Part shown: positions 3,993-19,724 of the stretch, piece after piece
Position numbering within the stretch: position 1 is the stretch's first letter
How the letters are laid out: every line of letters begins with the position of its first letter
Assembly (NCBI GenBank): GCA_963664725.1
Contig: OY761558.1
Location: 2,156,414 to 2,220,413, forward strand
Length of the DNA: 64,000 nucleotides
Origin: Dehalococcoidia bacterium
GTDB lineage: Bacteria > Chloroflexota > Dehalococcoidia > Lucifugimonadales > UBA3495
Direction of reading: 5' to 3'
Made by a program: the position numbers and the translations under genes
Notes under the pieces: model-generated
What the model saw: the letters and a program-made list of their open reading frames with translations, nothing else
Databases searched by the model: none
What the model was told of the DNA's origin: nothing

Positions 3993-4463
3993 ATGTTACG
4001 ACCTGCCGCAACTGCCAAAAGAATCAGCCACACACCTGAAAAGGACCTAGCCGACATGACAATGGACCAAGTCCAACGAACAATCAGAACCATTCGGTCC
4101 AAGACCGACCCCGAAGCCGAGGGCGTAGCCCTTTACATCGGGTCCCAGTCCGGCGAGGCCCTCCAGGCCATAAGGCCAGCCGGAGAACTGCTGGACCGGA
4201 ACACACCGGTCTTTGGGCTTTCACCCCGCCAGATCGGCCGGAGAGTAAGCCCCGCGGCAAAGGCCGCAGTCCTGGGCGACGGGTTCACCGGTCCCAGCGG
4301 CCGCGTGGGCATGGCCCAGGACCTGGGCAAGACCGGCGCCGAGCTTCCGGCCCTCATGACAGCAAGCCGGTGGAAGAGCTCCACCATGCCGGCGAGATAT
4401 ACCGAACGTCAGGCGGCCGACCGGGGCGCCGTGGCCAGATTCTACCAAAACGGCAAGGAATAA
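3993..4463 (+). pseudogene. tyrosine recombinase/integrase, 5'-truncated C-terminal fragment (copy C1)
   Basis: Peptide RSKTDPEAEG...FGLSPRQIGRRVSPAAKAAVLGDGFTGPSGRVGMAQDLGKTGAELPALMTASRWKSSTMPARYTERQAADRGAVARFYQ matches the box II / Tyr region of phage-type integrases. The box I Arg region is absent and the HxxR His is replaced by Pro. Confidence 0.7.
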
Positions 4464-4631
4464 GAGCGCACAGACACATCTGGGAACCAATACGTCAAGG
4501 CAACGCTGCACCCATGCATGCACACGCCAACTCACCCACGCATACGCGCGGGTCTATTCTCTGCCGGACCATTCCTATTGGATAGCGACATAGCGACCAA
4601 AGTGAGAAACAAAGTGACGTAAGATTGTTTT

Positions 4632-4660
4632 TTGACCAAAGCCCAGACTCTAGATATACT
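4632..4660 (+). promoter_or_regulatory. putative sigma70-type promoter for the peptidase/LRR gene
   Basis: TTGACC (4632-4637), an exact 17-nt spacer, then TATACT (4655-4660), in an AT-richer intergenic patch about 90 nt upstream of the ATG at 4750. Confidence 0.5.
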
Positions 4661-4749
4661 CGCCTTGCAAGAGCAGGTAGTATTGCTCAAATTGCTCCAG
4701 TATCCCGCCTTAACCATTTCCTTTGAATTGTTGATGCAAGGAGGGAACT

Positions 4750-6408
4750 ATGAAGGCTTTGCCAATCATCGCTGGAGTGGCGGTTGTTTTCCTAGTCTTG
4801 GCCGGTTTTGCAGTCTTCCTGGTTACGCGCGGCGACGACAGTAGGCAAGCCGAAACCACCCCCTCGAATTCGATGGCAACAGACCAGCCTGGAGACTCAG
4901 GCCCTTCCGTTAGCCCAGGCCCAGGCTCACCCGGAACCGAGACGGCCCCGCAGGTGGCCGAGTCCCCAGGTCAAACGCAGGAAGGCATAATTGTCTCCCC
5001 CACCACCAATCGGGTGGGAGGACCAACTACCGGAGAGTTCTCTCCTGTCATACTTCAGGGAGAAGGCGAAGCGCCGCAGCACCCTTGGCAGGAAGACGGG
5101 CTGACCGACCTGGAATCCGACGTAGCCGCCAACCTGACAGAGATCAACAGCATCGCACCCCAGGCCGGGACCGCCCTGGCAGGCGTTGGGTGGCTGGCCG
5201 ACGAGATGACCCTGGACGAGGGCGTCGCCTTGACCTACATCAGAGATATCGCCGCCCGCGATCCGGACCTGGCCCTTACGGTGGTGAACCTCCCTTGGAT
5301 CGACGACGACCAATTGGAGGAAGAGGAAGAGTCGGTGCTGGTCCAACTCAGTGAAATTGCAACCGTCCATCCGAAGCTGGCCCTAAGCCTGGCCGGCTCT
5401 CCCCTGCTGAGCGGTGAAGTTACCCTGTCCGAGGAAGCAACCATTTCCATAGTGCAGGGTGTTGCCGCCGATGACCTCGAACTGGCCCAGCGCATGGCAG
5501 AGTCTCCGGAGTTAGCCGACGGTATTGATGCAACCGAACTGGCTGCCTTCACCGGCAGCGATAACTACTTTCTGGACCAGATAAAACTGCTTAGCCCTGC
5601 CTTGGCAGATATTTTAGAGGGCTACGCCTGGGTTACTTCACTTACCAGCCGCAACCCGTCGCAAGAGGACGATTCGCAACGGTACGAGAGGTACGTTCTG
5701 GGAGACCTGTACTGGCTTGCCAGGCTGGACCCTGCACTGGCAGAGCGCGTGGGAGGCTATCCCTGGCTAGCCGACGGGGTGACCGACCTGGAATCCAGGA
5801 TCCCGTCGACTCTCGAATACACGGCTAGGAACAATCTGGAGGTAGCCCGGCGTGTGGCGGGGTTCCCCTGGATGGTCGAGCAGCCGACCAGGGATCACCT
5901 GGTGGCAAACTACCAGGTCTGGCGCCTCACGAAATACTCCCCAGCCCAGGCCGATACCCTGATGAACCAGGGATGGTTCCAGGACGACATAGTCGACTCG
6001 GAAGGAGCATTACTTACCGTATTGCGCGTGGGCTGCAATTTTGAGAGCTACTGCCAGCAACTGATTGAGGCCGGCCAGGTGGAGTCAAAGGTTCTCTCCC
6101 GGCCGACGGGCGACGTAAAGGTGTTCGCGGTAAGCCGCTCTCCCCTGGGAGAAGCCGCAGAGTTCATATTCGATGGCACCCAACTCACCATAGACGGGAT
6201 GGAGGAGCTAATTGGTCCGGCCTGGCCACAGCCCAGGATCGTTGTGTACCTGGAACCGGAGTTCAAGTACATATCCGATATCGGGGGATTCAACAGCCGT
6301 GGTATGGTGATGATTTCCGAATCCCCCCTCTCGGGAGGCTATATCGCGTGGGGCACTCTGTTCCATGAGCTGGCCCACTATTATGGTTATCACGCCCGGG
6401 CCAAGTGA
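4750..6408 (+). CDS. membrane-anchored repeat protein with MA-clan (HExxH) metallopeptidase motif; N-terminal part of an interrupted gene
   Basis: N-terminal TM helix and a Pro/Ser/Gly-rich linker. About five repeats of roughly 45 aa each end in a PW motif (NLPWIDDD, GYAWVTS, GYPWLADG, GFPWMVEQ). LFHELAHYY sits near the C-terminus. The ORF ends at a TGA that is in frame with the next ORF. Confidence 0.75.
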   Translation: MKALPIIAGVAVVFLVLAGFAVFLVTRGDDSRQAETTPSNSMATDQPGDSGPSVSPGPGSPGTETAPQVAESPGQTQEGIIVSPTTNRVGGPTTGEFSPVILQGEGEAPQHPWQEDGLTDLESDVAANLTEINSIAPQAGTALAGVGWLADEMTLDEGVALTYIRDIAARDPDLALTVVNLPWIDDDQLEEEEESVLVQLSEIATVHPKLALSLAGSPLLSGEVTLSEEATISIVQGVAADDLELAQRMAESPELADGIDATELAAFTGSDNYFLDQIKLLSPALADILEGYAWVTSLTSRNPSQEDDSQRYERYVLGDLYWLARLDPALAERVGGYPWLADGVTDLESRIPSTLEYTARNNLEVARRVAGFPWMVEQPTRDHLVANYQVWRLTKYSPAQADTLMNQGWFQDDIVDSEGALLTVLRVGCNFESYCQQLIEAGQVESKVLSRPTGDVKVFAVSRSPLGEAAEFIFDGTQLTIDGMEELIGPAWPQPRIVVYLEPEFKYISDIGGFNSRGMVMISESPLSGGYIAWGTLFHELAHYYGYHARAK

Positions 6409-6420
6409 ATTGTTGAGGGA

Positions 6421-7713
6421 GTGACCAGCTTCTTCGATTCCTACATCTTCTTCGCTGCAGGCGTCGACACCATCAAAGACCAGTACGACCGGTCTCAAAA
6501 GGCGGTGGAGATCGCGTGCATTCGTCAGGGTCAGCCGAACATATACCAGCGAATACTGGCCACCAGGGACTGGACCCGAGCAGAATGGTTATGGAAGAGG
6601 GGCTGCGACTACTACTTGGGTGAGCGCTTTATGCATGCACTCTACATAGACCTCGGCCACGATATGGTAGCCGGGTCGCTGCAAGAATTGCACAGAAGAC
6701 CCGGCGAGAGGCGGTCGCCACTCACTGAGGAGAACATCTATGACATCTTCCTGTCCCACACCCCCTCGGAAAAGACCCAGCTGTTCCAGGACATCTACAC
6801 CTGCTTTCACGGTATGCCCGTATCCGGACAGATCCCGTCTCCCAGCGCCGACTGCGACAACCTCCCTTTGGGTCCGGGTACAGAGGTGAGAGATCCCACC
6901 CTGTTGGTCGAAGCCCTGACCCCCGGCCCCCGACCAACGCCCACCCTCTCGGCCCAAGGCCTGGACGACCGGAAAACCCTGCTGGCAATAGACGATGCCA
7001 TTAACAACGTGACCTCTTGGAAAGAAACCGACCAGATGAACCTGCCCCTCGAAAGCTGGAGGGGCGTCTTCGCCACCGACGAGGCGGGGAATGTCACCGG
7101 CCTCAACCTCAACAACACCCGCATAGACGGTCCCATTCCCCCGGAAATAGGAAACCTGGTCCACCTGGAATGGCTGACAATAACCAGCGCTCACTTGACC
7201 GGGCCATTGCCCCCTGAACTGGGCAACCTGGTCAACCTGACCAAACTGGAACTGAACGCCAACCGGATCACCGGGCCTCTGCCCCCGGAACTGGGCAACC
7301 TGGTCAATCTCCAGGAACTGAACCTTCAGGTAAATGAGGTGGACGGTTCGTTGCCCCCGGAACTGGGCAAATTGACCAGCCTGACATCGATGAACTTTGA
7401 ATCAAACAGGCTGACGGGTTTCATCCCTTCCGAGTTCGGCAACCTCACAGCCCTGGAGAAGCTCAACTTGCGAAATAACCAGTTGACCGGTTCGCTGCCC
7501 CCGGAACTGGGCAACCTGGTCAATTTGATCGACCTGGGCCTGGGAACAAATCAGCTAAGTGGGGAGATACCGGCCGAACTGGCAAGGCTGGAGAACCTCC
7601 GGGGATTTTCTTTGCGAGCCTTCGGTGATAACGAATTCACTGGATGCGTGCCGGCCGGGTCGCCTGACATCGTGGCGAAGGAAATGTATAGACTGAAATT
7701 GCCGGATTGCTAG
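6421..7713 (+). CDS. leucine-rich repeat (plant-type 24-aa LRR) domain; C-terminal part of the same interrupted gene
   Basis: Eight or more repeats of the type LTGPLPPELGNLVNLxxLxLxxNx. It is in the same frame as 4750-6408, separated by a single TGA at 6406-6408, and has no RBS of its own. Confidence 0.75.
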   Translation: MTSFFDSYIFFAAGVDTIKDQYDRSQKAVEIACIRQGQPNIYQRILATRDWTRAEWLWKRGCDYYLGERFMHALYIDLGHDMVAGSLQELHRRPGERRSPLTEENIYDIFLSHTPSEKTQLFQDIYTCFHGMPVSGQIPSPSADCDNLPLGPGTEVRDPTLLVEALTPGPRPTPTLSAQGLDDRKTLLAIDDAINNVTSWKETDQMNLPLESWRGVFATDEAGNVTGLNLNNTRIDGPIPPEIGNLVHLEWLTITSAHLTGPLPPELGNLVNLTKLELNANRITGPLPPELGNLVNLQELNLQVNEVDGSLPPELGKLTSLTSMNFESNRLTGFIPSEFGNLTALEKLNLRNNQLTGSLPPELGNLVNLIDLGLGTNQLSGEIPAELARLENLRGFSLRAFGDNEFTGCVPAGSPDIVAKEMYRLKLPDC

Positions 7714-7899
7714 GCAAGCCAAGAGTACAGGGGCGACCAATGCCGCCGCATGGACATCCTGCCAGACCTGCATTCAGGACCGTAGAGTCTTCACCTTACC
7801 GGCAACAGAACCGGTTATCGCCGCCTCTCCGTGTCCATCATCTCCTCCCACCCCATGGCCCCGGCCGCGACCTACCAGAGCGCCGGACTCCCAAGTAAC

Positions 7900-8158
7900 A
7901 TCGGTCTTCCGGATCTCGCCCCGCCAGATCGGCCGGAGAGTCAGCGCTGCGGCAAGGGCCGCAGGCCTAGGAGAAGGATTCACCGGCCACAGCGGCCGTG
8001 TCGGAATGGCCCAGCACCTGGCCAACACCGGCGCAGAGCTCCCGGCGCTCATGACCGCAGGCCGATGGAAAAGTTCAACCATGCCGGCCCGGTATACTGA
8101 ACGCCAGGCTGCCGACCGGGGCGCCGTGGCCAGGTATTACCAGAATCCGACGGATTGA
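7900..8158 (+). pseudogene. tyrosine recombinase C-terminal fragment (copy C2)
   Basis: My translation is RQIGRRVSAAARAAGLGEGFTGHSGRVGMAQHLANTGAELPALMTAGRWKSSTMPARYTERQAADRGAVARYYQNPTD*. HxxR, W and the nucleophile Tyr are retained, but everything N-terminal of this is missing and there is no start codon. Confidence 0.7.
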
Positions 8159-8190
8159 GAACGCCTCGACACATATACCCCTCTACGCCT

Positions 8191-8394
8191 CTATGCACCA
8201 ACGCGCTGCCGCCGCCGCGAAGCCCCAGTCCCAGGCTCCGCCACGGCTATACCCTGCCCCTCCAGGCACTCCCTGATCGCAGCCTCTCCAATCTCCGAGA
8301 GATTCATGCCAAGTTCCCACTGGGCAGTGTGGAGCGCAAACCTGGCCTCTTCCCAGAAACCGCTAACAAGTACATGTACCGCAAGAATACACAC
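8191..8394 (-). CDS. small hypothetical protein, possibly ribbon-helix-helix-like
   Basis: 67-aa ORF. The segment LGMNLSEIGEAAIRECLEG resembles the helix-helix part of CopG/RHH proteins. The match is weak and from memory only. Confidence 0.3.
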   Translation of the reverse strand: MCILAVHVLVSGFWEEARFALHTAQWELGMNLSEIGEAAIRECLEGQGIAVAEPGTGASRRRQRVGA

Positions 8395-8484
8395 CTGGGC
8401 ATCTCAGCCCGAATTACTCGGGCATCCTGACGCGTATGCCTTCATTGCACACTATTGTCTGGGTAGGGTGCGTTTCTTCATTAG

Positions 8485-8529
8485 TTGACAGGGCAAATGC
8501 CCTTTCACAAAAAGGGCGTTTGCCAATTG
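8485..8529 (+). repeat. 45-bp palindromic element, copy 1 (ACAGGGCAAATGCCC-N11-GGGCGTTTGCCAATTG)
   Basis: The arms GGCAAATGCCCTTT and AAAGGGCGTTTGCC form a stem of about 14 bp. The element is near-identical to 56796-56838 read on the opposite strand, and it overlaps a TTGACA hexamer. Confidence 0.7.
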
Positions 8530-8765
8530 TTTCCGCCGCTGAAGCTGTGGCAACCTATCTTAGTCGTATCTGACAATCGGATCACTTCGCACCTCCCACC
8601 CAGCACGGACTTCAATTTCCAAGAGGCTCAGCTCCAGGCTCGTAATTTGCCCCATTTGGTCTGACCTGCACATTCCAGCAAAGTCCCAAATGGTGAGCCT
8701 CAGGCCTAACTCCAGCTCAAGTTCAAGAAGGCAGCTAAGCTTCTGAATCATTGGAAGAGGTTGGC

Positions 8766-9080
8766 ATGGGCAAACTCCTTCACCGGCACATCCCTGTTAT
8801 CGCCGTAATCTACACATTGGTACCCGTCACGGCAGCAGCCGTCGTCACATATTTGCTGGTAAGGAAAACCCTGGGACCAGAACCAGCTGCGGCTGCCGTG
8901 GTCCTGTATTTGCTGAGTCTGGCGGGCCTGGCCGCCCTGGTTTTCCGCTTCTATCCCAAAGCATTCGGGCTTCGGCGCGGGAACACCTGGTGGGTCAGAT
9001 TGCTTCGTTCCGCATCCGGGACCAGCGGCAAATTAGCGGATAAGGATACAAGCAGATCTTCTGCGGGGCGTTCAAAGTAA
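8766..9080 (+). CDS. small two-TM membrane protein (hypothetical)
   Basis: Two hydrophobic helices (IPVIAVIYTLVPVTAAAVVTYLLV and AAAAVVLYLLSLAGLAALVF) followed by a basic tail. The ATG at 8766 is preferred over the TTG at 8751. Confidence 0.45.
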   Translation: MGKLLHRHIPVIAVIYTLVPVTAAAVVTYLLVRKTLGPEPAAAAVVLYLLSLAGLAALVFRFYPKAFGLRRGNTWWVRLLRSASGTSGKLADKDTSRSSAGRSK

Positions 9081-9135
9081 TCGTCCTCCTGACCTGCTGG
9101 AGGAAAGGGATAAACGACCACCACGGGAGGGTTAT

Positions 9136-9504
9136 GTGGATATTGCAAGCAATTCCCGAGAACTTATCCTGCACGAGCCTGTGATCATCATCAACATCGA
9201 GAGGTCCATAAGCTCAGATCTCTCTCAGGTTCAGCCTTCAGGCATTTGCGCTGCGGTCAGCAGACTATGGACGGCGATGCCCGAGCCAAATTTAGCCGAC
9301 CGAGCCCTGGTCCTTGCCCGAAATTCCAGTGTGGTCGTCGGGGTCTTTCGAGTGAAGCGCTGGATTAAGAACCCCTTAGACAGGAATCGGTGGGGCATGG
9401 TCATCCAAGAGGCAGACGTTTCCAGCCAGATTCGTTACATAGGGAAAAATATCCCAGAAAAGTACAAGGCCGAAGAAGTCGCTCTCTGTCAGCCAGAAGA
9501 CTGA
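9136..9504 (+). CDS. hypothetical protein
   Basis: 122-aa ORF with GGGAGGG 6 nt upstream of a GTG start. The pattern RLW...ADRALVLARNSSVVVGVFRVKRW...NRWGMV...IRYIGKNIP resembles an uncharacterised family that I cannot name with confidence. Confidence 0.5.
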   Translation: MDIASNSRELILHEPVIIINIERSISSDLSQVQPSGICAAVSRLWTAMPEPNLADRALVLARNSSVVVGVFRVKRWIKNPLDRNRWGMVIQEADVSSQIRYIGKNIPEKYKAEEVALCQPED

Positions 9505-9617
9505 TCGCTCCTGCCCAAAAGCGCCACTAAGCTCTACATTCCCCATCATGGAAACGTCCGAGGGATTGAGAAACCGGCGACGCCTTTCCAGGAAGCTCCC
9601 CAAAGTACGTTTGCATC

Positions 9618-10052
9618 ATGCCTATCGCTAAAGCACCATACCCGAACCTGATGGAGGTACTTGTCAGCAAAGGCTACCGGACGACGGCTTCCAGGAAGGC
9701 AATAGTCAACCTCCTGCTCCAGAGGCAGGGGGGCTTTACGGTCGAGGCGCTCTGTGACGAACTCACCTCCGTGAGCAGGGCGACAGTATATCGAACCATA
9801 AAGCTCTTTCTTGAGGCCGGGGTGGTCTGCAAACTGGCCAAGACGGACAGACCTTGCATATATATCATCTGCGGAGTTGGCCACCACCACCACTCAGTAT
9901 GCCTTCAGTGTGGCTCAGCGGAGGAAATCAGGGCAACTGCGCTGGAACCGTTGATAGCCGCCATTAGTGCCGATATTTCGGCACAAATCATAGACCACCG
10001 CGTTGAGTTGTACGTAACCTGTGAGTGCTGCTCCACGACCGGAGAAGGATAA
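9618..10052 (+). CDS. Fur-family metalloregulator (Fur/Zur/PerR type)
   Basis: Winged-helix segment SRATVYRTIKLFLEAGVV, an HHHH run followed by CLQCG, and a C-terminal CECC pair. The length of 144 aa is typical for the family. Confidence 0.85.
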   Translation: MPIAKAPYPNLMEVLVSKGYRTTASRKAIVNLLLQRQGGFTVEALCDELTSVSRATVYRTIKLFLEAGVVCKLAKTDRPCIYIICGVGHHHHSVCLQCGSAEEIRATALEPLIAAISADISAQIIDHRVELYVTCECCSTTGEG

Positions 10053-10353
10053 GCTACCCAGCCTATCAGCGGTGGCTGTCCGGTCCCACGTGAACGCGCT
10101 GGCTGCCACCTACTCAACCGAAGACAATGCCCGAACCTCTCTCAAGATCTTACAAACCGCCGCCTACGGCTTACAGACAATGATTCCCAAGACCGCAGAA
10201 CCTGCAACCTCCACAAGATCCGCAGGGACCTGGCTATCTCCAGGTCGGAGTTCGAACGAGCATAAACGGAGGGCGCCAAAACCCCCTACGAACAAGAACT
10301 CCTGGGGAAATACCTGGCCCACCTGAACGTCAAAGGGCTGATGAGGAAAAAAC

Positions 10354-11565
10354 ATGGCAGGAAGAACCGCTCTGTCTATCGTTTCGATATTCCTGGCCAT
10401 GACGGCTTTCATGCTCCCGGCGTACGGGGCGGCGGACGCTGCCTCCAGTGAAGGACTAGCGCGCAAACCGTCGCTTTGCACTTCGGGACAAATTGTTCCG
10501 GGGAGCATTGAGGTCTTTTCCAACAGTAGCGTAGCAGGGGAAATTGCCGGCCATACCGTGCATTTTAAGTTCTGCCCTCCCCGGGCCAGTGCGGACGCTG
10601 GACGACACGGATCGCCGACAGAAAGTTCCAAGTATTATATTGCGTTCCTTTGGCAGGACCAGTTCAGCCGTCACAACCGAGACGAAATGGACATCACCCT
10701 GAGGGATGCCGGCGGCAGGACGTGGCCGGTGGACTTAACGAAAGCATCGGGCTGGCGGTATTTCTACCATTATGATGGGTACAACGAGGCTGCAATTGAG
10801 ATCCCGCCGTTCCTGTACCGGAAAGAACAGGCCGGTGGATATTCTCCGGTGGATCTGTGGTTTCAGGTCCCTGTTGCCGCAGGAATATCCAACGGGCGGG
10901 TCGGCCCGCATCGCTGGGGAGTGGCCTTCTACCAGGGCTCCGTCAACAATTGTGGCACATCCATAGACTGGGTTGAAAAAGTGCTGGTGCCCGCCGCGAT
11001 TGACATGTCGCAACCGCAAATCCACGTCAACGACACTTCAGGTAGCGCTAGTTCAAGAACAGTCCTATACGGCTCCGGATTTGAACCTTTCGCCCTCCTG
11101 AGCAGCCTTACCATGGGTGGGCTAGACATCAGACTTGACCGGGACCGCCCAATTTTCACCGATGACAATGGCCAGTTCTTTCTTAACATATTTGTCCCGC
11201 CCCTGGACGTAGGTCTTACGAAAATAGAAGTAACCGTGGGAGAGAAAACGGTCTCCACAGGATTTACTGTGACCTATGGCTCCCCAGGTACATTCTTCGA
11301 CCGTGGCCTATTAGTCGAGCGACCGGACCAGGCCCTGGGACCAAATCTGGCAACGGTGTTTCACTATGAACTGAGGTCCGGCCAATGGGTCTTCTACGAC
11401 CCCGAAATAAGCCCACGGAAGAACACCCTGCAGTGGCTTGTTGATGGTGAGTGCTATTGGATTCTGGTGAAGGATCCAGTCGAGGTGGAAGTGTCAGAAA
11501 CGCTGCTGACCTTGACCTGCAGCAGTGATGGAAACTGTTGGAACCAGGTCGTTTGGTGGAATTAA
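10354..11565 (+). CDS. secreted IPT/TIG-domain protein with conserved Cys-pair C-terminal domain
   Basis: Signal peptide (LAMTAFMLPAYGAADA). IPT-like segment VLYGSGFEPFALLSSLTMGGLDI...TKIEVTVGEKTVSTGFTV. The last 77 aa or so align with the C-terminus of the 49916-53293 protein and end CWNQVVWWN. Confidence 0.7.
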   Translation: MAGRTALSIVSIFLAMTAFMLPAYGAADAASSEGLARKPSLCTSGQIVPGSIEVFSNSSVAGEIAGHTVHFKFCPPRASADAGRHGSPTESSKYYIAFLWQDQFSRHNRDEMDITLRDAGGRTWPVDLTKASGWRYFYHYDGYNEAAIEIPPFLYRKEQAGGYSPVDLWFQVPVAAGISNGRVGPHRWGVAFYQGSVNNCGTSIDWVEKVLVPAAIDMSQPQIHVNDTSGSASSRTVLYGSGFEPFALLSSLTMGGLDIRLDRDRPIFTDDNGQFFLNIFVPPLDVGLTKIEVTVGEKTVSTGFTVTYGSPGTFFDRGLLVERPDQALGPNLATVFHYELRSGQWVFYDPEISPRKNTLQWLVDGECYWILVKDPVEVEVSETLLTLTCSSDGNCWNQVVWWN

Positions 11566-11759
11566 TGACAGAGATTCTAGGTGATCCCTTGCAACCTGCT
11601 CTAATTGAAGGACAATCTGACCCGGAGTATTTACGGGCCTGCAGCACCCGCCTTCTCCGCAACAAAGTGTGCGCCCGCGCCCTTTCAACCCCCGGCTGGA
11701 ATACAGGAAGTATGATTTTCTGCCGGCCGGCAACAAACCGGGTTTTCCAACTACCTCAT

Positions 11760-12135: not shown

Positions 12136-12197
12136 AACACCCGACGTTAACGCATTACGGACAGGGTCCGAATTGATAAGGGGGTCCACCAAGAACT

Positions 12198-14330
12198 ATG
12201 GACTTCAATCTTCACAAGCGCATTGTCATAGGCACCCTAATCCTCCTCCTGATCCTGGGATGTCAGGGCAGCGCCACCCAACCTGAACAGCCCGAGGCCG
12301 TCCCGAACACAGCAATTCCAGTACCCACCGCCGCACCATTACAGGAGGCGGCTCCAGTCCCACGCCCGACCATACAGGAACAAGCGGCCGACACCACCGC
12401 GCTGGCAACCCCGCAATCTCCCCTGGTGGTTATACCCTCTACGCGTCCCGCGCCGTCAGGGACATCGCCAACTCCACCGGCAATAGATTCGGCAGAAGCA
12501 GTCGTAGAGACTCCTGCAGCGCCAGCAATAGATTCGGCAGAAGCAGTGGTAGAAACCCCTGCAGCACCACCCTCGGCGCAGGCGCCTGTTCCCACCGAAG
12601 TGCCCGGACCAGCAGCGACTGCACCGCCAGCGGTGGCAATAACGCCGACCACCGAAGCAGGGGTGGACCCCAGGTTTAGCTCCATGAGCGTTGGCGGCCG
12701 CCACGCCTGCGGCGTCAAAGCTGAAGGCGCACCCTACTGCTGGGGGAGCAACGCATACGGCGGGGGCGCCTCTCCGCCCGAAGGCCTGTCGTTGACCGAA
12801 ATCACAGCCGGAGGCTCCCACTCCTGCGGGTTAAGACCCGACGCTACGGCAATCTGCTGGGGCGGGCTCAAGGGAGAAGGCATAATCGCGCCAGGTGTCC
12901 TGCCTGCAGACCTGATGTTTACCAAGTTCAAGTCCCTGTCGGGTGGAACAAACGCTACTTGCGGCATCAAGGCCGATGATTCCGTCGCCTGCTGGGGATT
13001 CCTCAGCCGCGGCCAGGAGTTCTCCAGTCCAAGCCAGACCGAATCATTCTCAATGGTCAGCGTGGGTAGCGCCCATGCCTGCGGGGTAACTACCGACGGC
13101 CAGCTCCGTTGCTGGGGAGACCCACTTGAATACCACACTGCTGACGAGGTGCCTGAGTCGGCGTCCAGCACCCAGTTTGCCACCGTCAGTGCCGGTCCTA
13201 CCAACACCTGCGCGGTGTCCACGGAGGGTACTGTGCTGTGCTGGGGCAGCGACTACGGTGCTGGATTGGTCCCTCACGGCGGGAGCTTCACGTCGGTAAG
13301 CACCGGCGAGGGCCAGGCCTGCGGCGTCCTGAGCAATGCCGCCCTGGCCTGCTGGTGGGACGACCACCTGGCAGCCCCTGTCCCCGGTGGGACCTTCACA
13401 TCGGTGGGAGTATCCACCCTCGAGAAGGACCACCATAAGGGAAGTACAAGCGTGTGCGCACTGAGGACCGACGGGACCGTCGCCTGCTGGGGGGAAGCAG
13501 GCATTGGCCCAGCTCCCGGAGGAGCCTTCAAGTCGGTTGATATTGGCGTAAGAGATGCCACCTGCGGATTGAAAACCGACAACACGGTGGTTTGCTGGAA
13601 CAACGCCGGATACCGCCCTCTGCGGACCGATAATATCGAGCCGCCCCCTGCGGAAACGCCCTTTCTTTCGGTTAGCACCGGAAACAGCCACGTATGCGCA
13701 GTAGCCACCGACGGAGTCCTTCAGTGTTGGGGCGAAATCGACAAGAACAAGGCAGAATTCCCCGCCGGTACCTTTCAGTCGGTCACCGCAGGCTACGAAT
13801 CCGCCTGCGCTCTCAAACCCGACGGGTCGGTGGCCTGCTGGGGCGGTTTTGGCCCGGACAGAGACCTGACCGGGGCCACCGGTCCACCGGATGGCGCCTT
13901 TGTCACCATAGACTCGGGCGGCCACCACACCTGCGGGATACGGACAGACGGCACACTGGCCTGCTGGGGCCTGGCAGCCGTCCGGGGGCTGCCTCCACCG
14001 GAGGGTTCCTTCATTGCAGTGGACGCAGGCGACGACCAGACCTGCGGCATTGAGGCTGATGGCTCTCTCTTCTGCTGGAACGAAGACAAAGTATGGGAGC
14101 AGTCCGGAGGGCCGTACCTGTCTGTCGGCGTGGGAGCGGACCACTGGTGCGCTGTAAAAGCCGGCGGCTCAATAACCTGCTGGGGCAGCGACTCGGACTG
14201 GGCGGCAGGGCCAACCGGTCGGACAGAGCCGCCGCCCGGGCCCTTCGTATCAGTTGAGGCCGGGGATCTCAATACCTGTGGCATCAGACCCGATGCTTCC
14301 CTGGTCTGCTGGGGAGGTTACTCGCGATAA
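12198..14330 (+). CDS. RCC1-like repeat (beta-propeller) lipoprotein, paralog 1
   Basis: Lipobox LLILGCQG and a Pro/Ala/Thr-rich linker. More than 12 repeats follow, of the type xxAGxxHxCGxxxDGxxxCWG (RCC1_2-like). It ends TCGIRPDASLVCWGGYSR. Confidence 0.85.
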   Translation: MDFNLHKRIVIGTLILLLILGCQGSATQPEQPEAVPNTAIPVPTAAPLQEAAPVPRPTIQEQAADTTALATPQSPLVVIPSTRPAPSGTSPTPPAIDSAEAVVETPAAPAIDSAEAVVETPAAPPSAQAPVPTEVPGPAATAPPAVAITPTTEAGVDPRFSSMSVGGRHACGVKAEGAPYCWGSNAYGGGASPPEGLSLTEITAGGSHSCGLRPDATAICWGGLKGEGIIAPGVLPADLMFTKFKSLSGGTNATCGIKADDSVACWGFLSRGQEFSSPSQTESFSMVSVGSAHACGVTTDGQLRCWGDPLEYHTADEVPESASSTQFATVSAGPTNTCAVSTEGTVLCWGSDYGAGLVPHGGSFTSVSTGEGQACGVLSNAALACWWDDHLAAPVPGGTFTSVGVSTLEKDHHKGSTSVCALRTDGTVACWGEAGIGPAPGGAFKSVDIGVRDATCGLKTDNTVVCWNNAGYRPLRTDNIEPPPAETPFLSVSTGNSHVCAVATDGVLQCWGEIDKNKAEFPAGTFQSVTAGYESACALKPDGSVACWGGFGPDRDLTGATGPPDGAFVTIDSGGHHTCGIRTDGTLACWGLAAVRGLPPPEGSFIAVDAGDDQTCGIEADGSLFCWNEDKVWEQSGGPYLSVGVGADHWCAVKAGGSITCWGSDSDWAAGPTGRTEPPPGPFVSVEAGDLNTCGIRPDASLVCWGGYSR
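12480..12569 (+). repeat. 45-bp tandem duplication (x2) inside the linker of RCC1-like paralog 1
   Basis: 12480-12524 and 12525-12569 differ at a few bases. They encode AIDSAEAVVETPAAP twice. Confidence 0.85.
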
Positions 14331-14346
14331 AGGAACAAGGGACAAG

Positions 14347-14375: not shown

Positions 14376-14478
14376 CGACAAACCAAGGACGATTTTGAGT
14401 GCCCCAAAAGGCCTTGATACGGCAGAAGCAACCTGTCCTGTAAATTAGCTTTTCATAAGGACGCCTGAGGTTCCCGAA

Positions 14479-14778
14479 ATGACTTTGCAGAACCCTCTCC
14501 GGCCAGCCCTCCAGGGCCCCGCCGAAACCTTGCCACCTGCGCCCAACGGGTCTGCTGGTCCCCTGGACCACCGCGCTTCCGAAGACTCCAGGATGATGTA
14601 TGCCGCCGCAAGGCGGTCCTGCACTCAGTGGCTCCAGGCCCGGGACAACCGCTTCATCACGGCGACTCCAGCCCTGATGGCCGCCACCCGGTTATACCAG
14701 GCGACCCGGCCGCGCACTACACGAGCGCTGCTTACAGTCGCCCCACATTCAAGGCCAGACTATCCCGATTGGAAGTAG
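14479..14778 (+). pseudogene. tyrosine recombinase N-terminal fragment (copy N-A)
   Basis: MTLQNPL...ASEDSRMMYAAARRSCTQWLQARDNRFITATPALMAA parallels copy N-B and the N-terminal core-binding (SAM-like) domain pattern S.N(T/S)R..Y...W..F..W......P. There is no catalytic domain. Confidence 0.5.
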
Positions 14779-14839
14779 TCACATAAGCACAAGACGGCGA
14801 CAACAGGCGTCTTGGATCCATTGGGGAGGTATCGTAGAT

Positions 14840-16897
14840 ATGTTGAAAACGGGCGGCAACGAAGCAGTTCTGCGCTTGGGTAAATACTGCTTCATCGCAG
14901 GGTTGGCGGCCATAGCGGTGGCGGCCGTCGGGATATCATGTGGCGGCAGCAGCCAGGACGCCAGTTCATCCCCCAACCAGGCGGCGGGGGATGGAAGGCT
15001 CAGTACGGCCCAAAGTGGAGTTCCTCCGGAGCCCGGCATATCAGCCGGGGCCGGAAGGGCCCCCGCTTCCCAGGATCTCGCACCGGCTCCTCCGCAAATG
15101 CCACAGTCCGCCGGTCCCGAGCCCGGTGAAACGGAACGACCCATGGCCACAACAGGGGATAATGAGGTGCCCATCCCTCCGGCTGAACTGGCCACCCCCG
15201 GAACAAGTACAAGCCAGGATACCTCCGGAGCCGGGGTAGCTCCTGAAGGCGGCCGTGGACCCACCCCCCAGAATACCGGGCTGGCGCCCACTGAAGTACC
15301 GCAGTCACCCGTCTCCGAAGGCGAAACCGGTGGAGAAAGCGAAGCCAGCAACGCAGGCGTCCCCGGACCAGGTCATTCAGCCCTCTCCACCAGAGACCTG
15401 AAGTCTGTACCCAAAGGGGACTATCCCTGGGTGGTAATGGTGGACACGGACGCATTCATTGCTGGCGACGTTCCTCCGCTAGTCGGTAGCGTCATCGGAA
15501 TCCCCTACATACCCAGTCTGTTGGCCGAGGCTTCAGGTGTCCCGACAGAACAGCTACAGGGCGCCGTACGTTTGTTGGACGGATACGACATTCCCGCTGA
15601 CGCTGTGGAGAAAGCAACCGTGGTGGGAGGTAATTTTGGGGATAACAAACCCCTGGAATTTGCGGTGGTTCTTGAAGGAGATTTTGACTACGCCGAAATT
15701 CTTGACTTCCTGAACAGGAGCGGGTATTGGCTTAGGGCCAAGGGACCTGGCTTATGGTTCTACGAAAGCGAGGATAATGGAGTCGCAAGCTTTGAAGACG
15801 ACGGATACCTGATTATTGGCGACCCCGCTGACGTTGGTGCCGCCTTCGACGAAATGTCCAGGTCTGCCAACAGGTCCGATGTGACCTGGGCTGGAGACAT
15901 CGGTATTTCCACCGGTTCGATCAGGGTTGCCGCGTCCGTCTCAGATGACGATCGGCCATACTCCAAGCGAGTTATCGCTCTGCAAGGGGCCTTCGACTTC
16001 GCCCGGATCAGAAGCCAGCTTTCCGTCAATGGCTATCTTGTTGACCCGGAAAACGTTGAGGGTTACGAGGTTTGGCAACGGCCTGACGACGACATTGTCG
16101 TAGCGCTGGTCGATTACAACGACTACGTACTGCTGGGCGACCGGTACCTCATTTCGGACCTGTTCCATACCACTGTCAGTCCGCTAATTCCAGGCCGCCT
16201 CCTGAGGCAGGTTTACGGGACGAAACTGGCAGAAGTAGATACGCTGGTCTCCCTGGGCGGGGGCACTGCAATTCTGGGCGACTACGACCCGGAAGAATTC
16301 AGAACCGCGATGCAAGGTAATGAACAAGTCGAAGGGGCCACGTCCGAGGCATGGATACTAACCGACCCCGTCACGTCAAGAAATCTTTTCGCGGAACTCT
16401 TGGGGGGCGTCATATATACCTTTCCAGTGGGGGTTCTTGCGGAGGCTGCCGGGGAGACGGAATTGCGGGACGATGCTGGAAATCCCCTGGTCAAGGCAAT
16501 GGAAATAGCCGGACCCGGCTGGCTGTTAGGAGCCTGGTCAGGCCCCTGGTATTGCAAAAAGTTTGTTTTCGACCTGGATGTAGACAGCTGCCAGGCCACG
16601 GCATTGGCGGTTCAATCCGCAGGCAATGAAGCTGTGGCAGCCAACTGGGTTATTCTCATGGATGGTCAAGAGGCGGCAGCCCAGGCCAGCGGTCAGTTGG
16701 AAAGTGCTCTTGCGGCAAAAGAGGACCTGCTGTCGGTGGCAAGCGTGCTTAGCCTGGGCCGGACGGAGGATGGTCTTCTGGAATATGAAGTAACCAATGA
16801 AGGCGATGCAGTCGTCGTGAAGCTGAGAGTAACCACAGAATACGCCGCTCAATTTCTGTATTTGGTCCTTAGTGAGATGAACAAGTCCTTGAGATGA
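14840..16897 (+). CDS. lipoprotein with long Pro-rich linker, unknown function
   Basis: Lipobox AAVGISCGG and a disordered Pro/Gly/Ser segment of about 170 aa. The globular part of about 480 aa contains internally repeated EGDFDYAEI / QGAFDFARI modules. Confidence 0.7.
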   Translation: MLKTGGNEAVLRLGKYCFIAGLAAIAVAAVGISCGGSSQDASSSPNQAAGDGRLSTAQSGVPPEPGISAGAGRAPASQDLAPAPPQMPQSAGPEPGETERPMATTGDNEVPIPPAELATPGTSTSQDTSGAGVAPEGGRGPTPQNTGLAPTEVPQSPVSEGETGGESEASNAGVPGPGHSALSTRDLKSVPKGDYPWVVMVDTDAFIAGDVPPLVGSVIGIPYIPSLLAEASGVPTEQLQGAVRLLDGYDIPADAVEKATVVGGNFGDNKPLEFAVVLEGDFDYAEILDFLNRSGYWLRAKGPGLWFYESEDNGVASFEDDGYLIIGDPADVGAAFDEMSRSANRSDVTWAGDIGISTGSIRVAASVSDDDRPYSKRVIALQGAFDFARIRSQLSVNGYLVDPENVEGYEVWQRPDDDIVVALVDYNDYVLLGDRYLISDLFHTTVSPLIPGRLLRQVYGTKLAEVDTLVSLGGGTAILGDYDPEEFRTAMQGNEQVEGATSEAWILTDPVTSRNLFAELLGGVIYTFPVGVLAEAAGETELRDDAGNPLVKAMEIAGPGWLLGAWSGPWYCKKFVFDLDVDSCQATALAVQSAGNEAVAANWVILMDGQEAAAQASGQLESALAAKEDLLSVASVLSLGRTEDGLLEYEVTNEGDAVVVKLRVTTEYAAQFLYLVLSEMNKSLR

Positions 16898-16997
16898 GGT
16901 ATGCCCTGACTTGGCTTCCTGCGGACAAATTTCTCTTCAGGAGCTCCAGTCAATAAGGCACATATTACGGTTAAAGGACCGGTTAGGGAGGCCAGCC

Positions 16998-17382
16998 ATG
17001 GCCCTGCAGAACCCCCTCCTGCCAAGCCGCCCGGGAGCCCCAGCAAACTCTCCCACGGGCGCCCGTCGGCGGCATCAACCCCACCGACATCGAGCGAGTC
17101 GGCCTGCCCCTCGACAACAGCGCCTCGGAAAACTCCCGGCCAATGTACGCCCCTGTTTGGCGTTCCTTCCAGGCCTGGGCCAAAGTCCAGGGCGCGCTGC
17201 CCATGCCGGCATCAATGTTCCTGGCTACCACCCACCAATCAGAATTGACCGTGAAGCACGACCCTGCGGTGGCCACCGTCCGTCTGCACCGCGCCGCTCA
17301 GGCCGCCATCCGCAAGGCCAGATGCCACGAGGCCCCCACGGGCAACGAGGGTGACAGCCAGGCTCTGCACCGCATCGCCTGA
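16998..17382 (+). pseudogene. tyrosine recombinase N-terminal fragment (copy N-B, frameshifted)
   Basis: It starts MALQNPLLPS and then changes frame to GINPTDIERVGLPLDNSASENSRPMYAPVWRSFQAWAKVQGALPMPASMFLAT...TVRLHRAAQAAIRKA...ALHRIA*. This is the typical integrase N-terminal domain pattern. There is no catalytic domain. Confidence 0.6.
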
Positions 17383-17606
17383 GCATAAGGACGGGCCAGA
17401 CAGTAGGCGATACCGCTCCGGAGGTATCCACACCTGGAAAAGCAAGGCTCAACCCTGGTCCCTGGCAAAAAGCCTGGAAACCAGGGCCCACGCCTCACCA
17501 ATCGAGCCAGCGTAGATTGACAAGATGTACCTTTGCCGGATCAAACCCTCAATAACACCTGGATAATTACGAAGCCCAGAGATTGCAAGGAGGTCCAGTC
17601 AAGACC

Positions 17607-19724
17607 ATGAAAGTAAGCCTTCGGAAAAACATGGGCATCGCCAGTCTGTCACTCCTGTTGCTCTTGGCCTGCCAGGGTAACGTCACCCAAACCGAACAGC
17701 CCACCACCGCCCCAGACTCAGTCATCGCGTCACCCGACGCTACGCCTGCCATCCAGGCGGTCGAAGAAACGGAACAAGCCGTTACCGCCCCACCGGCGGC
17801 AATGGACCAGGAGACGCCCGGACCGCCGGTCGCAACGACCGTAACGCCGCCGGAACCGGGCAGTGCCACGACAAGCACAGGAACGGCGACGGCCACAACA
17901 GAAGCGCCGACAGCGACGCCGGAAGGGATACGTGCAGCGCAGGCAGGCCCTGAGCCCACCGCTCAGCCCCCGGCACAGCCGGCCACGCCCACGGAGGTTG
18001 CCGAACCAGCCGTTGCAACGTCGCCAGCGGCTCAGACCAGCCTGAGCAACGAGGCGGGAGTGGACCCAAGGTTCAAGTCCATCAGCCTCGGGTGGCAGCA
18101 CGCCTGCGGCGTGCTCACCGAAGGGACCCCGGTCTGCTGGGGCATAAATACCCACGGCAACGCGACACCCCTGGGAGGGTTATCCCTGAAGTCAGTCACC
18201 GCCGGATCTGCCCACACCTGTGGACTGAAGGAGGACAGCTCAGCAGTATGCTGGGGAGGAGCCAATGATGACCGAGTAGCATTCAAGGTCGGAGGCCAGT
18301 TCGGGGAAGGCGCCGTACCGACCGACCTGGTTTTCACCAAGTTCATGTCCCTGGCAGCCGGCGGGGGATTCACCTGCGGCGTCAAGGAAGACGGGTCTGC
18401 CACCTGCTGGGGATTCAACGATTCGGGACAAACCAGCGTCCCAACCGACGAGACCTTCACGGTGATCACCGCTGGGGCTGACCATGCCTGCGGGATCAAC
18501 CAGGACGGCCAGATCATCTGCTGGGGCGACCAGAAAGCGAAGAAAGGCATAGCCGTCGTACCCGAGGCGGCAGCAAGCCAATCCTTTGTAGCAGTCAGCG
18601 CAGCATGGCAGAACACCTGCGCCGTGACCGACGGGGGCATCGTGCTCTGCTGGGGCGTGGATTTCGGGGAAGGGTCAGTACCCCACGGCGGCAGCTTCAC
18701 CTCGGTCAGTGTCGGATTCAACCTCTCCTGTGGGGTTCAGACAGACAGCTCCATCGCCTGCTGGAGGCAAAACCTGGAACCAGCCCCAGCTCCATCCGGG
18801 TCCTTCACTGCTGTCCAGGTGGCCAAAGCCCACGAGGGACGGTACCACGCGCCAGGGTCGACCAGCGCCTGCGGGCTGAGAACCGACGGCAGCCTCACCT
18901 GCTGGGGTTACGGGCACGTCAGCCCAGCACTAGGAGGAAGCTTTACGTCTATTGAAATGGCTATTGGCGATGCCAGTTGCGCCCTCAACTCGGACGGCAC
19001 AGCCGCCTGCTTCCTGGTGGAGTTCCACGAGCCTTACCGGCCGGCCCCGCCCCCGCCGGAGGGAACGACTTTCACCTCAGTCAGCCCCGGCTTTGGCCAC
19101 GTCTGCGGCGTAAAGACCGACGGAACTATTCTCTGCTGGGGCAACTCCAGCTACGGGCAATTGAACTCGCCGGAAGGGTCTTTCCAGTCAGTGAGTTCGG
19201 GCTACGAATACGCCTGCGGGCTGAGGAACGACGGCACGGTGGCCTGCTGGGGCCAGGACAGTAGCGGCTCCACCAGCCCACCACCCGATACCTTCGTCTC
19301 TATCGAGTCCGGAGGCCACCATACCTGCGGCATAAGGCCAGACGGTACCCTGGCCTGCTGGGGTCGGGAGGCTCACATGGGGACGCCTCCCGAGGGCACG
19401 TTCACGTCAGTCAACGTGGGGAACACCATCACCTGCGCCATCAGCACCGAGGGAGTTCTGACGTGCTGGAACGAAACAGAGGAATGGAATGAGCCAGGAG
19501 GCCCCTACGCAGCCGTGGCAGTGGGGGCACACCACCGATGCGCGGTAGACACCGGCGGCTCAATAATCTGCTGGGGCAGCGATACCGCATGGGGTGTCGC
19601 CGGAACCATCGGCCGGACCGAAGCGCCGGAGGGTCCCTTCGTGGCCGTGGGCGCCGGAAATTACAACACCTGCGGCATCAGACCGGACGGCGCACTCGTC
19701 TGCTGGGGAGGATACGCGAGATAA
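17607..19724 (+). CDS. RCC1-like repeat (beta-propeller) lipoprotein, paralog 2
   Basis: GGAGG upstream of the ATG at 17607 and lipobox LLLLACQG. It has the same architecture and repeat type as 12198-14330 and ends TCGIRPDGALVCWGGYAR. Confidence 0.85.
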   Translation: MKVSLRKNMGIASLSLLLLLACQGNVTQTEQPTTAPDSVIASPDATPAIQAVEETEQAVTAPPAAMDQETPGPPVATTVTPPEPGSATTSTGTATATTEAPTATPEGIRAAQAGPEPTAQPPAQPATPTEVAEPAVATSPAAQTSLSNEAGVDPRFKSISLGWQHACGVLTEGTPVCWGINTHGNATPLGGLSLKSVTAGSAHTCGLKEDSSAVCWGGANDDRVAFKVGGQFGEGAVPTDLVFTKFMSLAAGGGFTCGVKEDGSATCWGFNDSGQTSVPTDETFTVITAGADHACGINQDGQIICWGDQKAKKGIAVVPEAAASQSFVAVSAAWQNTCAVTDGGIVLCWGVDFGEGSVPHGGSFTSVSVGFNLSCGVQTDSSIACWRQNLEPAPAPSGSFTAVQVAKAHEGRYHAPGSTSACGLRTDGSLTCWGYGHVSPALGGSFTSIEMAIGDASCALNSDGTAACFLVEFHEPYRPAPPPPEGTTFTSVSPGFGHVCGVKTDGTILCWGNSSYGQLNSPEGSFQSVSSGYEYACGLRNDGTVACWGQDSSGSTSPPPDTFVSIESGGHHTCGIRPDGTLACWGREAHMGTPPEGTFTSVNVGNTITCAISTEGVLTCWNETEEWNEPGGPYAAVAVGAHHRCAVDTGGSIICWGSDTAWGVAGTIGRTEAPEGPFVAVGAGNYNTCGIRPDGALVCWGGYAR

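Follow-up and report, generated by a model that had tools for sequence, protein, structure and literature searches.

The window analysed here is a stretch of 64,000 nucleotides from a Dehalococcoidia bacterium (Chloroflexota; Lucifugimonadales; UBA3495; assembly GCA_963664725.1, contig OY761558.1, positions 2,156,414 to 2,220,413 of the forward strand), in which a run of cargo genes between positions 3993 and 19724 is interspersed with pieces of a tyrosine recombinase gene. A preliminary description, made from the letters of the window, had reported five such pieces, all on the + strand, all of one family and none intact, each directly 5' of a block of cargo. The five pieces are real and far above chance, and a weak sixth can be added. 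We call the five F1 to F5, and residue numbers refer to an intact relative of 337 amino acids. The genes and gene pieces of the region are as follows.

3993-4094, + strand: first 34 codons of an HsdR_N-like cargo gene, a stub fused in frame to F1
4095-4463, + strand: F1, recombinase residues 213-333 and stop codon (tblastn E 7e-52; blastn to F2 and F3)
4750-6408, + strand: protein of 552 amino acids with an N-terminal membrane anchor or signal (translation; no Pfam family)
6421-7713, + strand: leucine-rich repeat (LRR) protein of 430 amino acids (LRR Pfam matches)
7718-7893, + strand: weak sixth recombinase remnant, residues about 43-111, abutting F2 (tblastn E 8e-4)
7898-8158, + strand: F2, recombinase residues 252-333 and stop codon (PF00589, 32.3 bits; tblastn E 2e-39)
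8155-10052, + strand: small open reading frames and, at 9618-10052, a Fur-family regulator (PF01475, E 3e-20)
10278-10337, + strand: stub of about 20 codons of a conserved gene for about 75 amino acids (alignment with loci L005, L008 and L160; tblastn)
10354-11565, + strand: signal-peptide protein of 403 amino acids (translation; no Pfam family)
11853-12124, + strand: F3, recombinase residues 243-326 (tblastn E 5e-32; translation)
12198-14330, + strand: RCC1-repeat lipoprotein 1, 710 amino acids (PF13540, E 6e-55; lipobox in the translation)
14479 to about 14769, + strand: F4, recombinase residues 1 to about 92, strongly diverged (tblastn E 1e-10; nhmmer E 6e-10)
14840-16897, + strand: lipoprotein of 685 amino acids without a known domain (lipobox in the translation; no Pfam family)
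16998-17418, + strand: F5, recombinase residues 1-140, frameshifted (tblastn E 3e-32)
17583-19724, + strand: RCC1-repeat lipoprotein 2, 713 amino acids, the last module (PF13540, E 9e-61)
20276-21088, - strand: Transket_pyr, a housekeeping gene past the last module (Pfam)
21158-22126, - strand: E1_dh, a housekeeping gene past the last module (Pfam)

F1, F2 and F3 are 80-82% identical to one another over 240-277 nucleotides (blastn E 1e-59 to 1e-72), and all three match the C-terminal end of PF00589 (profile positions 104-169), F2 above the gathering cut-off of that family and F1 and F3 below it. Their likeness, which had been thought to run for tens of nucleotides past the stop codon, extends for only about 16 and is not conserved at other loci. 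F4 and F5 have no Pfam match and resemble each other weakly (40% over 55 amino acids); that both are true N-termini is seen from the intact 337-residue relatives, which begin MALQNTLLP or MTLQNPLLP, and a database protein of 271 residues begins MALQNPLLP...NTRAMYASVWRSFQAWAQARG. The ways in which the pieces have decayed differ. In F1 the catalytic His has become Pro; in F3 the His has become Asn and the Tyr Asp, a premature stop codon is present, and the 3' gene segment carries an indel and substitutions; F2 retains H, R, W and Y and has nothing upstream of residue 252; and F4 and F5 are N-terminal only. No piece in the window could encode an active recombinase. The sixth remnant, also matched by an N-terminal nhmmer profile at 7740-7806 (E 0.006), and F2 are one internally deleted recombinase gene.

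Two of the borders originally drawn for these pieces had to be moved. F1 had been taken as recombinase from 3993, and its reading frame is chimeric, with 34 codons of another gene followed in frame by recombinase from codon 213. The region 3993-4094 is 92.7% identical to positions 13782-13891 of L003 (one of the loci fetched from related genomes, which we number with the prefix L), where it forms the start of a 190-residue gene that carries PF04313/PF13588 and sits just upstream of a full recombinase gene. By this alignment F1 is a proven gene fusion, in which a single deletion would have joined codon 34 of an HsdR_N-like gene to codon 213 of the recombinase gene. F3 had been placed from about 11760, and its recombinase homology begins at 11853; the preceding window segment 11689-11788 is also kept before a recombinase fragment in L074. 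When the window and the other loci are taken together, the ends of the fragments are irregular: C-terminal pieces begin at residues 213, 243, 252, 276, 287, 299 and 303, and N-terminal pieces end at residues 31, 67, 92 and 140. As aligned, these ends are deletion scars.

The cargo of the window is all co-oriented. As had been described, signal peptides or lipoboxes are visible in the translations of the 552-, 403-, 710-, 685- and 713-residue products, and Pfam finds the eukaryote-like LRR and RCC1 repeats and the Fur regulator; the earlier labels "MA-peptidase" and "IPT" were not reproduced by Pfam. RCC1 proteins 1 and 2 share 52% amino acid identity. Window positions 8100-8178 and 8195-8355 match L007 positions 18010-18088 and 18227-18387 at 82-85%, the second of these again after a recombinase fragment, and in the stub at 10278-10337 the start codon has mutated from ATG to AAA. 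An exact-sequence look-up of the window proteins found no record.

Intact homologs of the recombinase are present in related genomes. These proteins of 337 residues carry PF00589 (E 5e-13) and a weak SAM-like core-binding N-terminal domain, and they have no arm-binding domain, which is the simple architecture of Cre-type enzymes. The best match of the intact protein in the PDB is Cre of phage P1 (E 5e-21; residues 40-332 against Cre 35-339). In the HMMER alignment the motifs GHSGR, GRW and ARY pair with Cre H289/R292, W315 and Y324, and LLRRSE and RRSKTD align with the regions of Cre R173 and K201; the catalytic set R-K-H-R-W-Y, with Trp replacing the second His, is present in the intact relatives. 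With the models for XerC, XerD, XerA and integron integrases the intact protein stays well short of the cut-off, and NCBIfam NF011946 (integron integrase) gives 19.6 bits against a cut-off of 435, over the N-terminus only. The family is large, with 3021 proteins at E<=1e-5 and, in one-genome-per-species bacterial collections, at least 533 confirmed stretches, a lower bound given by a genome scan with two exact peptide patterns. Among the matches listed, the closest members come from metagenome-assembled genomes (MAGs) of Dehalococcoidia/SAR202, and remoter ones from Bryobacterales, Vicinamibacterales, Dadabacteria, "Poriferihabitaceae", Alphaproteobacteria and others; plasmids and viral contigs carry relatives at 27-43% identity. 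Many of the matches are in sponge-derived MAGs, and SAR202 bin22, which is among the richest genomes (at least 8 loci), is a symbiont MAG from the sponge Aplysina aerophoba (PMC5649159).

An assembly nearly identical to the window genome exists (OZ247428.1), and the genome lineage holds another array, L011, known from a sibling assembly. The only full-length copy in L011 is a pseudogene (a frameshift and an in-frame stop codon), and the 120 best matches, mostly full-length, include no protein from contigs of at least 3.7 Mb such as the source chromosome, which measures 3.75 Mb; for these reasons an intact recombinase copy in the source genome seems unlikely. No circular contig was found among the close relatives, and the sole terminal overlap belongs to the distant L058 (CAITLU010000026.1, 9843 bp), which has a 138-nucleotide terminal direct overlap, is probably circular and carries a 32%-identical family member. 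In that distant lineage, then, the element may exist free, much as a plasmid does.

Since the sites of Cre-type recombinases are usually palindromes next to the gene (PMC10250229), we searched for palindromes with 12-bp arms in 1 kb around the intact genes. A lox-like palindrome, P, was found there, with the consensus ATGTCCTATAAT-N5-TTATAGGACAT, that is, inverted arms of about 12-13 bp around an asymmetric spacer of 5-8 bp. In several intact copies without intervening cargo P lies about 20-45 nucleotides upstream of the start codon, and in L002, L003, L005, L031, L035 and L036 it lies 3-36 nucleotides 5' of the aligned gene start; in L001, L007, L008, L011, L015, L027 and L160 it is further upstream, with cargo in between. 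Examples are ACAGTTCCTATAA-TGGACG-TTATAGGAACTGT in L002 (39-62), CGAGTTCCTATAA-TGAACC-TTATAGGAACTCG in L005 (7002-7025) and ATGTCATATAAT-TGCAC-TTATAGGACAT in L031; L003 has a variant form, and the site in L049 has a 13-8-13 layout. Dyad symmetry is kept despite lineage-specific arms (CCTATAA/TTATAGG, CCGATAA/TTATCGG, ACGATAA/TTATCGT). Related palindromes stand before the gene in Bryobacterales, Magnetococcales, Planctomycetota, Alphaproteobacteria and other Chloroflexota, and a strong upstream palindrome was found in 16 of 70 relatives on phage (viral) contigs, one of them with the same TGTCCGATAA arms, compared with 1 of 70 shuffles. Three remnants of P survive in the window.

3972-3996, + strand: hybrid P remnant at the left border, with a degenerate left arm (TTCTGT), spacer TTCCCG and right arm TTAAAGGACATGT (profile match 3980-4027)
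14434-14462, + strand: degenerate but complete P, TGTCCTGTAA-attagcttt-TCATAAGGAC (half-site scan; profile match 14408-14497)
16948-16983, + strand: P remnant before F5, in which the right arm TTAAAGGACCGGT is intact, the left arm reads AGTCAATAAG and the spacer is enlarged (profile match 16964-17016, E 8e-6)

The array begins at the first of these, and the second ends 17 nucleotides before the start codon of F4. All fragments and all P remnants of the window are in direct orientation. The preliminary description had seen no convincing att repeats, and P is the likely site that it missed; the roughly 25 nucleotides that it had noticed upstream of both F4 and F5 turn out to be the right arm of P together with the ribosome-binding region. 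Its remark that each fragment heads a block of cargo holds as geometry and fails as a description of the module, as intact loci make clear: the order in L015 is P, a 12-codon gene stub, an RCC1 gene and then the recombinase gene, and in L003 it is P, the HsdR_N-like gene and then the recombinase gene. The L015 RCC1 gene, located between P and the recombinase gene, encodes a protein with 65% amino acid identity to RCC1 protein 1 of the window.

Because the left arm of P contains TATAAT and, in one cassette, its right arm supplies the ribosome-binding site and start codon, P may also drive expression; P lies just upstream of the ribosome-binding site, and a simple promoter scan gave no complete sigma-70-type promoter there. 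Other positions for a site were considered as well. Within the recombinase gene no P-like or lox-like palindrome was found (the best alignment score, 7, equals the shuffle mean of 7), and left half-sites of P before the 3' fragments, which would mean insertion into the gene, were not found apart from one orphan in L029. A site directly after the stop codon was rejected, since the downstream sequences of 36 copies share nothing. The GGTTCGAGTCC-like motif that follows the stop codon in L002, L010 and L031 is unrecognisable as a tRNA, and ARAGORN calls none. A motif resembling a tRNA T-arm (GCAGGTTCGAGTC / GTGGGTTCGAGTCC) does occur directly after the recombinase stop codon in several loci (L002 1094-1150; L031 10710-10760; L010 about 10790-10830; L012 about 960-1000), and it might be the relic of a tRNA-type attachment site in one sub-lineage. 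The P arms in L005 (7002-7025) and L002 (39-62), GAGTTCCTATA...TATAGGAACTC, closely resemble the arms of the yeast FRT site, GAAGTTCCTATTC...GTATAGGAACTTC; the likeness is probably coincidental and would be relevant if the enzymes were tried as tools.

In several independent cases the homology between loci changes over at P. L001 has the left flank and the site as in L002 and the right flank as in L027; L039 and L004 have common sequence only from the centre of the site rightwards; between L015 and L029 the likeness is confined to the left flank and the left arm; and for F5 the similarity to other loci sets in at 16970-16971, the centre of the site. The breaks between the window and L003, between L039 and L004 and between L015 and L029 all fall within a few nucleotides of the site centre. 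The left border of the array is the most telling of these cases. Relatives of the hotspot (L160, L161 and L163) were fetched through the neighbouring NUDIX gene, whose proteins are 82-88% identical. Window positions 1-3989 align with L161 at 84.9% and the alignment ends inside P, and homology of the window to the L003 cassette starts at 3984. In a five-way alignment the chromosomal flank, the spacer and a degenerate left arm (TTCTGT in the window, CCCTGT in L161) are common to the window and L161; with the right arm the window turns into the L003 cassette (TTAAAGGACATGTTA, then the HsdR_N-like gene), and past P in L161 there is the 5' end of a recombinase gene instead. On this alignment the exchange point at the left border lies within a few nucleotides of the P spacer. 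The 110-nucleotide stub after P is 92.7% identical to L003, against about 74% for the recombinase genes of the same loci.

The content at this position, between the CAP/NUDIX genes and the 2-oxoacid dehydrogenase genes, differs from relative to relative. L160 has a complete P, an Exo_endo_phos gene, a near-full recombinase gene and pentapeptide-repeat genes, and L163 has unrelated genes, namely an IS110 transposase and AAA_15/HNH; the synteny of both with the window ends about 200-330 nucleotides short of P, and that of L161, the closest, within a few nucleotides of the spacer. Genes for CAP/SCP-domain proteins (the cysteine-rich secretory protein family) border the hotspot in all relatives (window 2106-3680, - strand; L160 8577-9866; L161 2192-6983; L163 8510-9871 and 16456-17109). 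They are duplicated in L161 and also lie near the L001 recombinase gene (1202-2218, - strand), so that another eukaryote-like secreted family is tied to such regions.

Arrays of this kind recur in related genomes. Within 10 kb to either side at the fetched loci, 19 of 22 additional copies of the gene are on the same strand (p=9e-4), at a typical spacing of 3-4.6 kb (L003, L011, L027, L028, L041/L043, L055). L003, L028 and L055 each have two full recombinase genes, L027 has four copies, and in L011, L026, L041, L043 and L007 a full gene is followed by 3' fragments. Of the fragments, 18 retain the 3' end and 4 the 5' end, counts that are phylogenetically non-independent. Several units are conserved across genomes; with int for the recombinase gene, they are int-Z, fragment-X, fragment-Y, P-RCC1-int and P-HsdR_N-int. 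Among the sister arrays, L011 has the order int, Z (a serpin), fragment, X (a Uma2 nuclease), fragment, Y (two PD-(D/E)XK nucleases), fragment, V; L027 has int, Y, fragment, X; and L007 has fragment, X, fragment, W, with W standing for the sequence found after F2 in the window. The P profile finds no P at these sister-array cassettes. In alignments the 5' part of a fragment goes with the upstream cargo and its 3' tail with the downstream cargo, and crossover positions within the fragments vary from case to case. The last ~15 codons of the gene are near-identical in DNA even where the proteins share only 50% identity, and their synonymous diversity is 0.17 against a typical 0.3-0.5 (9 genes only).

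The cargo of L011 (10856-20492) comprises a 550-residue serpin, Uma2-family, PD-(D/E)XK and REase-ARP nucleases, an Rce1-like protease and a SMODS nucleotidyltransferase, so by its annotated domains the same array type carries defence-type genes and eukaryote-like secreted proteins. In L003 a 56-nucleotide inverted repeat (86% complementary) at 9689-13437 flanks a full recombinase gene and three genes on the opposite strand, and the segment may be invertible. The distal arm of this repeat is an inverted 5' gene fragment with a perfect palindrome of its own, GCACGATAA-TTGCCT-TTATCGTGC; as a general feature of the element the repeat was rejected.

We consider it likely that the window holds a fossil array of small Cre-like recombinase modules, stacked at a hotspot by way of P and then decayed through deletion. 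The module, as seen in intact relatives, would consist of P, optional cargo, the recombinase gene and cargo. The recombinase would recombine the P of a circular module with a chromosomal P or P-like site, and integration by P x P exchange, with the asymmetric spacer setting the orientation, would therefore pile up modules head to tail and in one orientation at the hotspot. Later deletions, frameshifts and point mutations would have destroyed the redundant recombinase genes and most P sites, leaving five or six fragments, a chimeric reading frame and gene stubs, while the cargo (secreted proteins, lipoproteins, LRR and RCC1 proteins and the Fur regulator) was retained. Modules that have lost P could presumably no longer be excised and would become fixed, which would explain the surplus of promoter-less 3' over 5' fragments. 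The 3' fragments left over are direct repeats, and in the sister array further recombination, probably of the homologous kind, has taken place between them, with the loss or reordering of cassettes. Tandem accretion at one hotspot followed by deletions had been one of the two explanations offered in the preliminary description, and it is the one we favour: content differs beside the CAP/NUDIX genes, varying at the level of cassettes among L160, L161 and L163, arrays recur, and fragment ends are irregular. By its state of decay the window locus itself is a dead array, with its cargo apparently fixed in the chromosome.

Several points weigh against this explanation. At most of the module borders in the window P cannot be recognised, and since only three remnants survive, accretion through P is an extrapolation for the remaining modules. 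That the enzyme acts on P is a prediction from sequence comparison, and P could be only a promoter or operator element. The excess of 3' fragments is not expected from random deletion, and what accounts for it here is a survivorship argument only. The cassettes of L011, L027 and L007 differ in order despite having no P, and the scan with two exact peptide patterns that gave at least 533 stretches does not prove that an intact copy is absent from the source genome.

The other explanation offered at the outset was that the recombinase gene sequence is itself the substrate. In this integron-like scheme the 3' end of the gene would be the portable site, and cassettes of gene fragment plus cargo would be moved in trans by an intact recombinase. 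Part of this stands, for the order of cassettes does differ between sister arrays, with X and Y reversed between L011 and L027 and X preceding a different cassette in L007, and the blocks break within 3' fragments, whose 5' parts and 3' tails travel with different cargo; the constant 3' end of the fragments, their 18-to-4 excess over 5' fragments and the conserved last codons of the gene would also suit a site there. The crossover points vary, however, the gene contains no palindrome, nothing is conserved after the stop codon, the diversity analysis covers only 9 genes, and the 3' fragments of the window decay in that very segment, as F3 does by its indel and substitutions. Because the cassettes have no P, the gene has no P-like sequence and the crossovers vary, we read the exchange at 3' fragments as probably due to homologous recombination between direct repeats, or to differential deletion from an ancestral array with two copies of X, either of which suffices. 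We therefore regard an integron-like use of the gene end as unlikely.

It is also improbable that no mobility was involved, and that the window is an old, vertically inherited array made by duplication and decay, in which P is an autoregulated promoter or operator and breaks at P are boundaries of promoter modules. The TATAAT hexamer and the position of P just before the ribosome-binding site are what such a history would leave, every window copy is dead, and some units are common to different genomes (11689-11788 with F3 in the window and L074; RCC1 followed by the recombinase gene in L015). Against it, relatives with NUDIX proteins 82-88% identical hold wholly different content at the same site, and the switch to L161 comes within a few nucleotides of the P spacer; flanks are swapped at full P sites in L001, L002 and L027; the stub after P is far closer to L003 than the recombinase genes are; and members of the family are spread over several phyla and are also carried by plasmids and viral contigs. 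That the recombinase gene alone is a selfish element like an insertion sequence, inserted repeatedly and at random in a variable region among neighbours that are no cargo, is very improbable, for although homology between copies is essentially limited to the gene and about 60 nucleotides upstream and copies are many per genome (at least 8 loci in SAR202 bin22), neighbouring copies lie mostly on the same strand (19 of 22), those of the window are all co-oriented with their cargo, gene-plus-neighbour units such as int-Z and fragment-X are conserved across genomes, and no terminal repeats or target duplications surround the gene.

Accretion of Cre-like modules through P can be set beside several known systems. 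Cre is a single gene that serves the cyclisation of a plasmid-prophage and the resolution of its dimers. Cre/loxP of phage P1, Dre/rox, Vika/vox and VCre are among the Cre-type recombinases that have been surveyed (PMC10250229). Like these, the present family is a two-domain simple recombinase without an arm-binding domain and with R-K-H-R-W-Y including Trp, Cre being the closest solved structure, and it has a candidate palindrome with arms of about 12-13 bp and a 5-8-bp asymmetric spacer beside the gene (PMC10250229). Unlike Cre, it is distant in sequence (E 5e-21), chromosomal, multi-copy, arranged in tandem arrays with cargo and mostly decayed, and its use of the site is predicted. With integrons it has in common a tyrosine recombinase linked to arrays of accessory cassettes, a cargo in which secreted, defence-type and unknown genes abound, an order of cassettes that varies between genomes and, perhaps, the placing of cassettes in one orientation beside a single platform site. 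It differs from them in that the recombinase is not IntI (19.6 bits against 435), the candidate site, upstream of the gene, is a double-stranded palindrome of the lox type, and the modules are 2-4.6 kb long, often with a recombinase gene of their own, and not always co-oriented in cargo (opposite-strand genes occur in L003 and L011). No conserved sequence or palindrome was found at cassette ends or past the stop codon and no attC-like hairpin was seen, in a search for which no dedicated attC model was used, and Rfam gave no family in window positions 1-24000.

Islands that grow by tandem accretion include integrative and conjugative elements and cis-mobilizable elements (ICE/CIME) in Streptococcus thermophilus, tycheposon islands in Prochlorococcus and ssrA islands in Dehalococcoides. 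The array resembles them in its single hotspot, its direct-repeat site remnants between modules, the decay of its integrase and persistence of its cargo, and content that varies among close relatives. It is unlike them in its target, which would be the element's own palindrome or a look-alike rather than a tRNA or transfer-messenger RNA (tmRNA) gene, in its simple Cre-like enzyme and in its much smaller modules without conjugation or phage genes. As the preliminary description had stated, the window lacks tRNA and tmRNA genes; none was found next to the recombinase genes in 22 related loci either, and an island that targets tRNA or tmRNA genes was rejected.

Integration divides the archaeal integrases of the SSV type into two parts, Int(N) and Int(C) (PMC8371274), so that the integrated DNA comes to lie between an N-terminal and a C-terminal piece of the gene, and the succession F3, RCC1 gene, F4 looks, on the surface, like Int(C), element, Int(N). 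The pieces do not, however, sum to a whole gene, residues 93-242 being missing between F4 and F3, and because the candidate site lies upstream of and outside the reading frame and the break points are irregular and variable, an SSV-type partitioned integrase was rejected. A shufflon or other invertible locus was likewise rejected for the window, where everything is in direct orientation; an inverted arrangement is found only in L003. A search of the literature at hand found no description of such recombinase arrays, and the family looks like an undescribed variant of site-specific cassette accretion.

It is conceivable, though on balance we would not wager on it, that the family is a lox-based gene-capture platform, parallel to the integron and shared by symbionts of several phyla (Chloroflexota, Acidobacteriota and others; many from sponges), which moves modules between genomes. 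Its cargo would comprise defence-type nucleases as well as eukaryote-like secreted proteins of the LRR, RCC1, serpin, CAP and pentapeptide classes, and cassettes without a recombinase gene might be mobilised in trans as long as P is kept. Sponge symbionts are rich in eukaryote-like proteins, defence genes and mobile elements (PMC5649159), and the route of such genes between unrelated symbiont lineages is poorly understood. The array, which belongs to a Dehalococcoidia genome of the sponge-symbiont type, hints at how symbionts may acquire secreted, eukaryote-like proteins. If such a platform exists, a small Cre-like module with a defined candidate site, present in many genomes of this type beside just these classes of gene, would be a concrete and testable vehicle; it would be a second, independent way for a tyrosine recombinase to build cassette arrays in one orientation; and it would offer a large natural set of recombinase and site pairs for the Cre-type toolbox.

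The gene of which a stub survives at 10278-10337 encodes a conserved protein of about 75 residues (MTPYEQELLEKYLAHLNVIGHEGDYPDFEAWYQAVRYAQGPG...) that belongs to no Pfam family. In six arrays it follows the recombinase gene on its downstream side at a distance of no more than about 1 kb (L005 9184-9408; L160 4683-4477, - strand; L074 6685-6464, - strand; L006 10822; L008 7465; L004 3383-3188, - strand). It could be an accessory factor of the element, for example a directionality or regulatory protein.

A multi-copy gene for 512 residues at 28492-30030 of the window was considered as a transposase and rejected, as it encodes a GMC oxidoreductase. It is 88.5% identical to a copy beside a recombinase gene in another MAG, and copies lie near recombinase genes in L042 (3100-4890), L022 (two copies) and L015 (17781-19058); the gene belongs to a multi-copy metabolic family and is no part of the element. 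Elsewhere in the window, internal direct repeats at 52159-52791 (306 nucleotides, 77%) and 60780-61957 (about 590 nucleotides, 70%) lie within the minus-strand reading frames 49916-53293 (1125 residues) and 60733-63990 (1085 residues), which indicates repeat-domain proteins, and the C-terminal part of the 403-residue cargo protein has a 28%-identical relative at 49919-50452.

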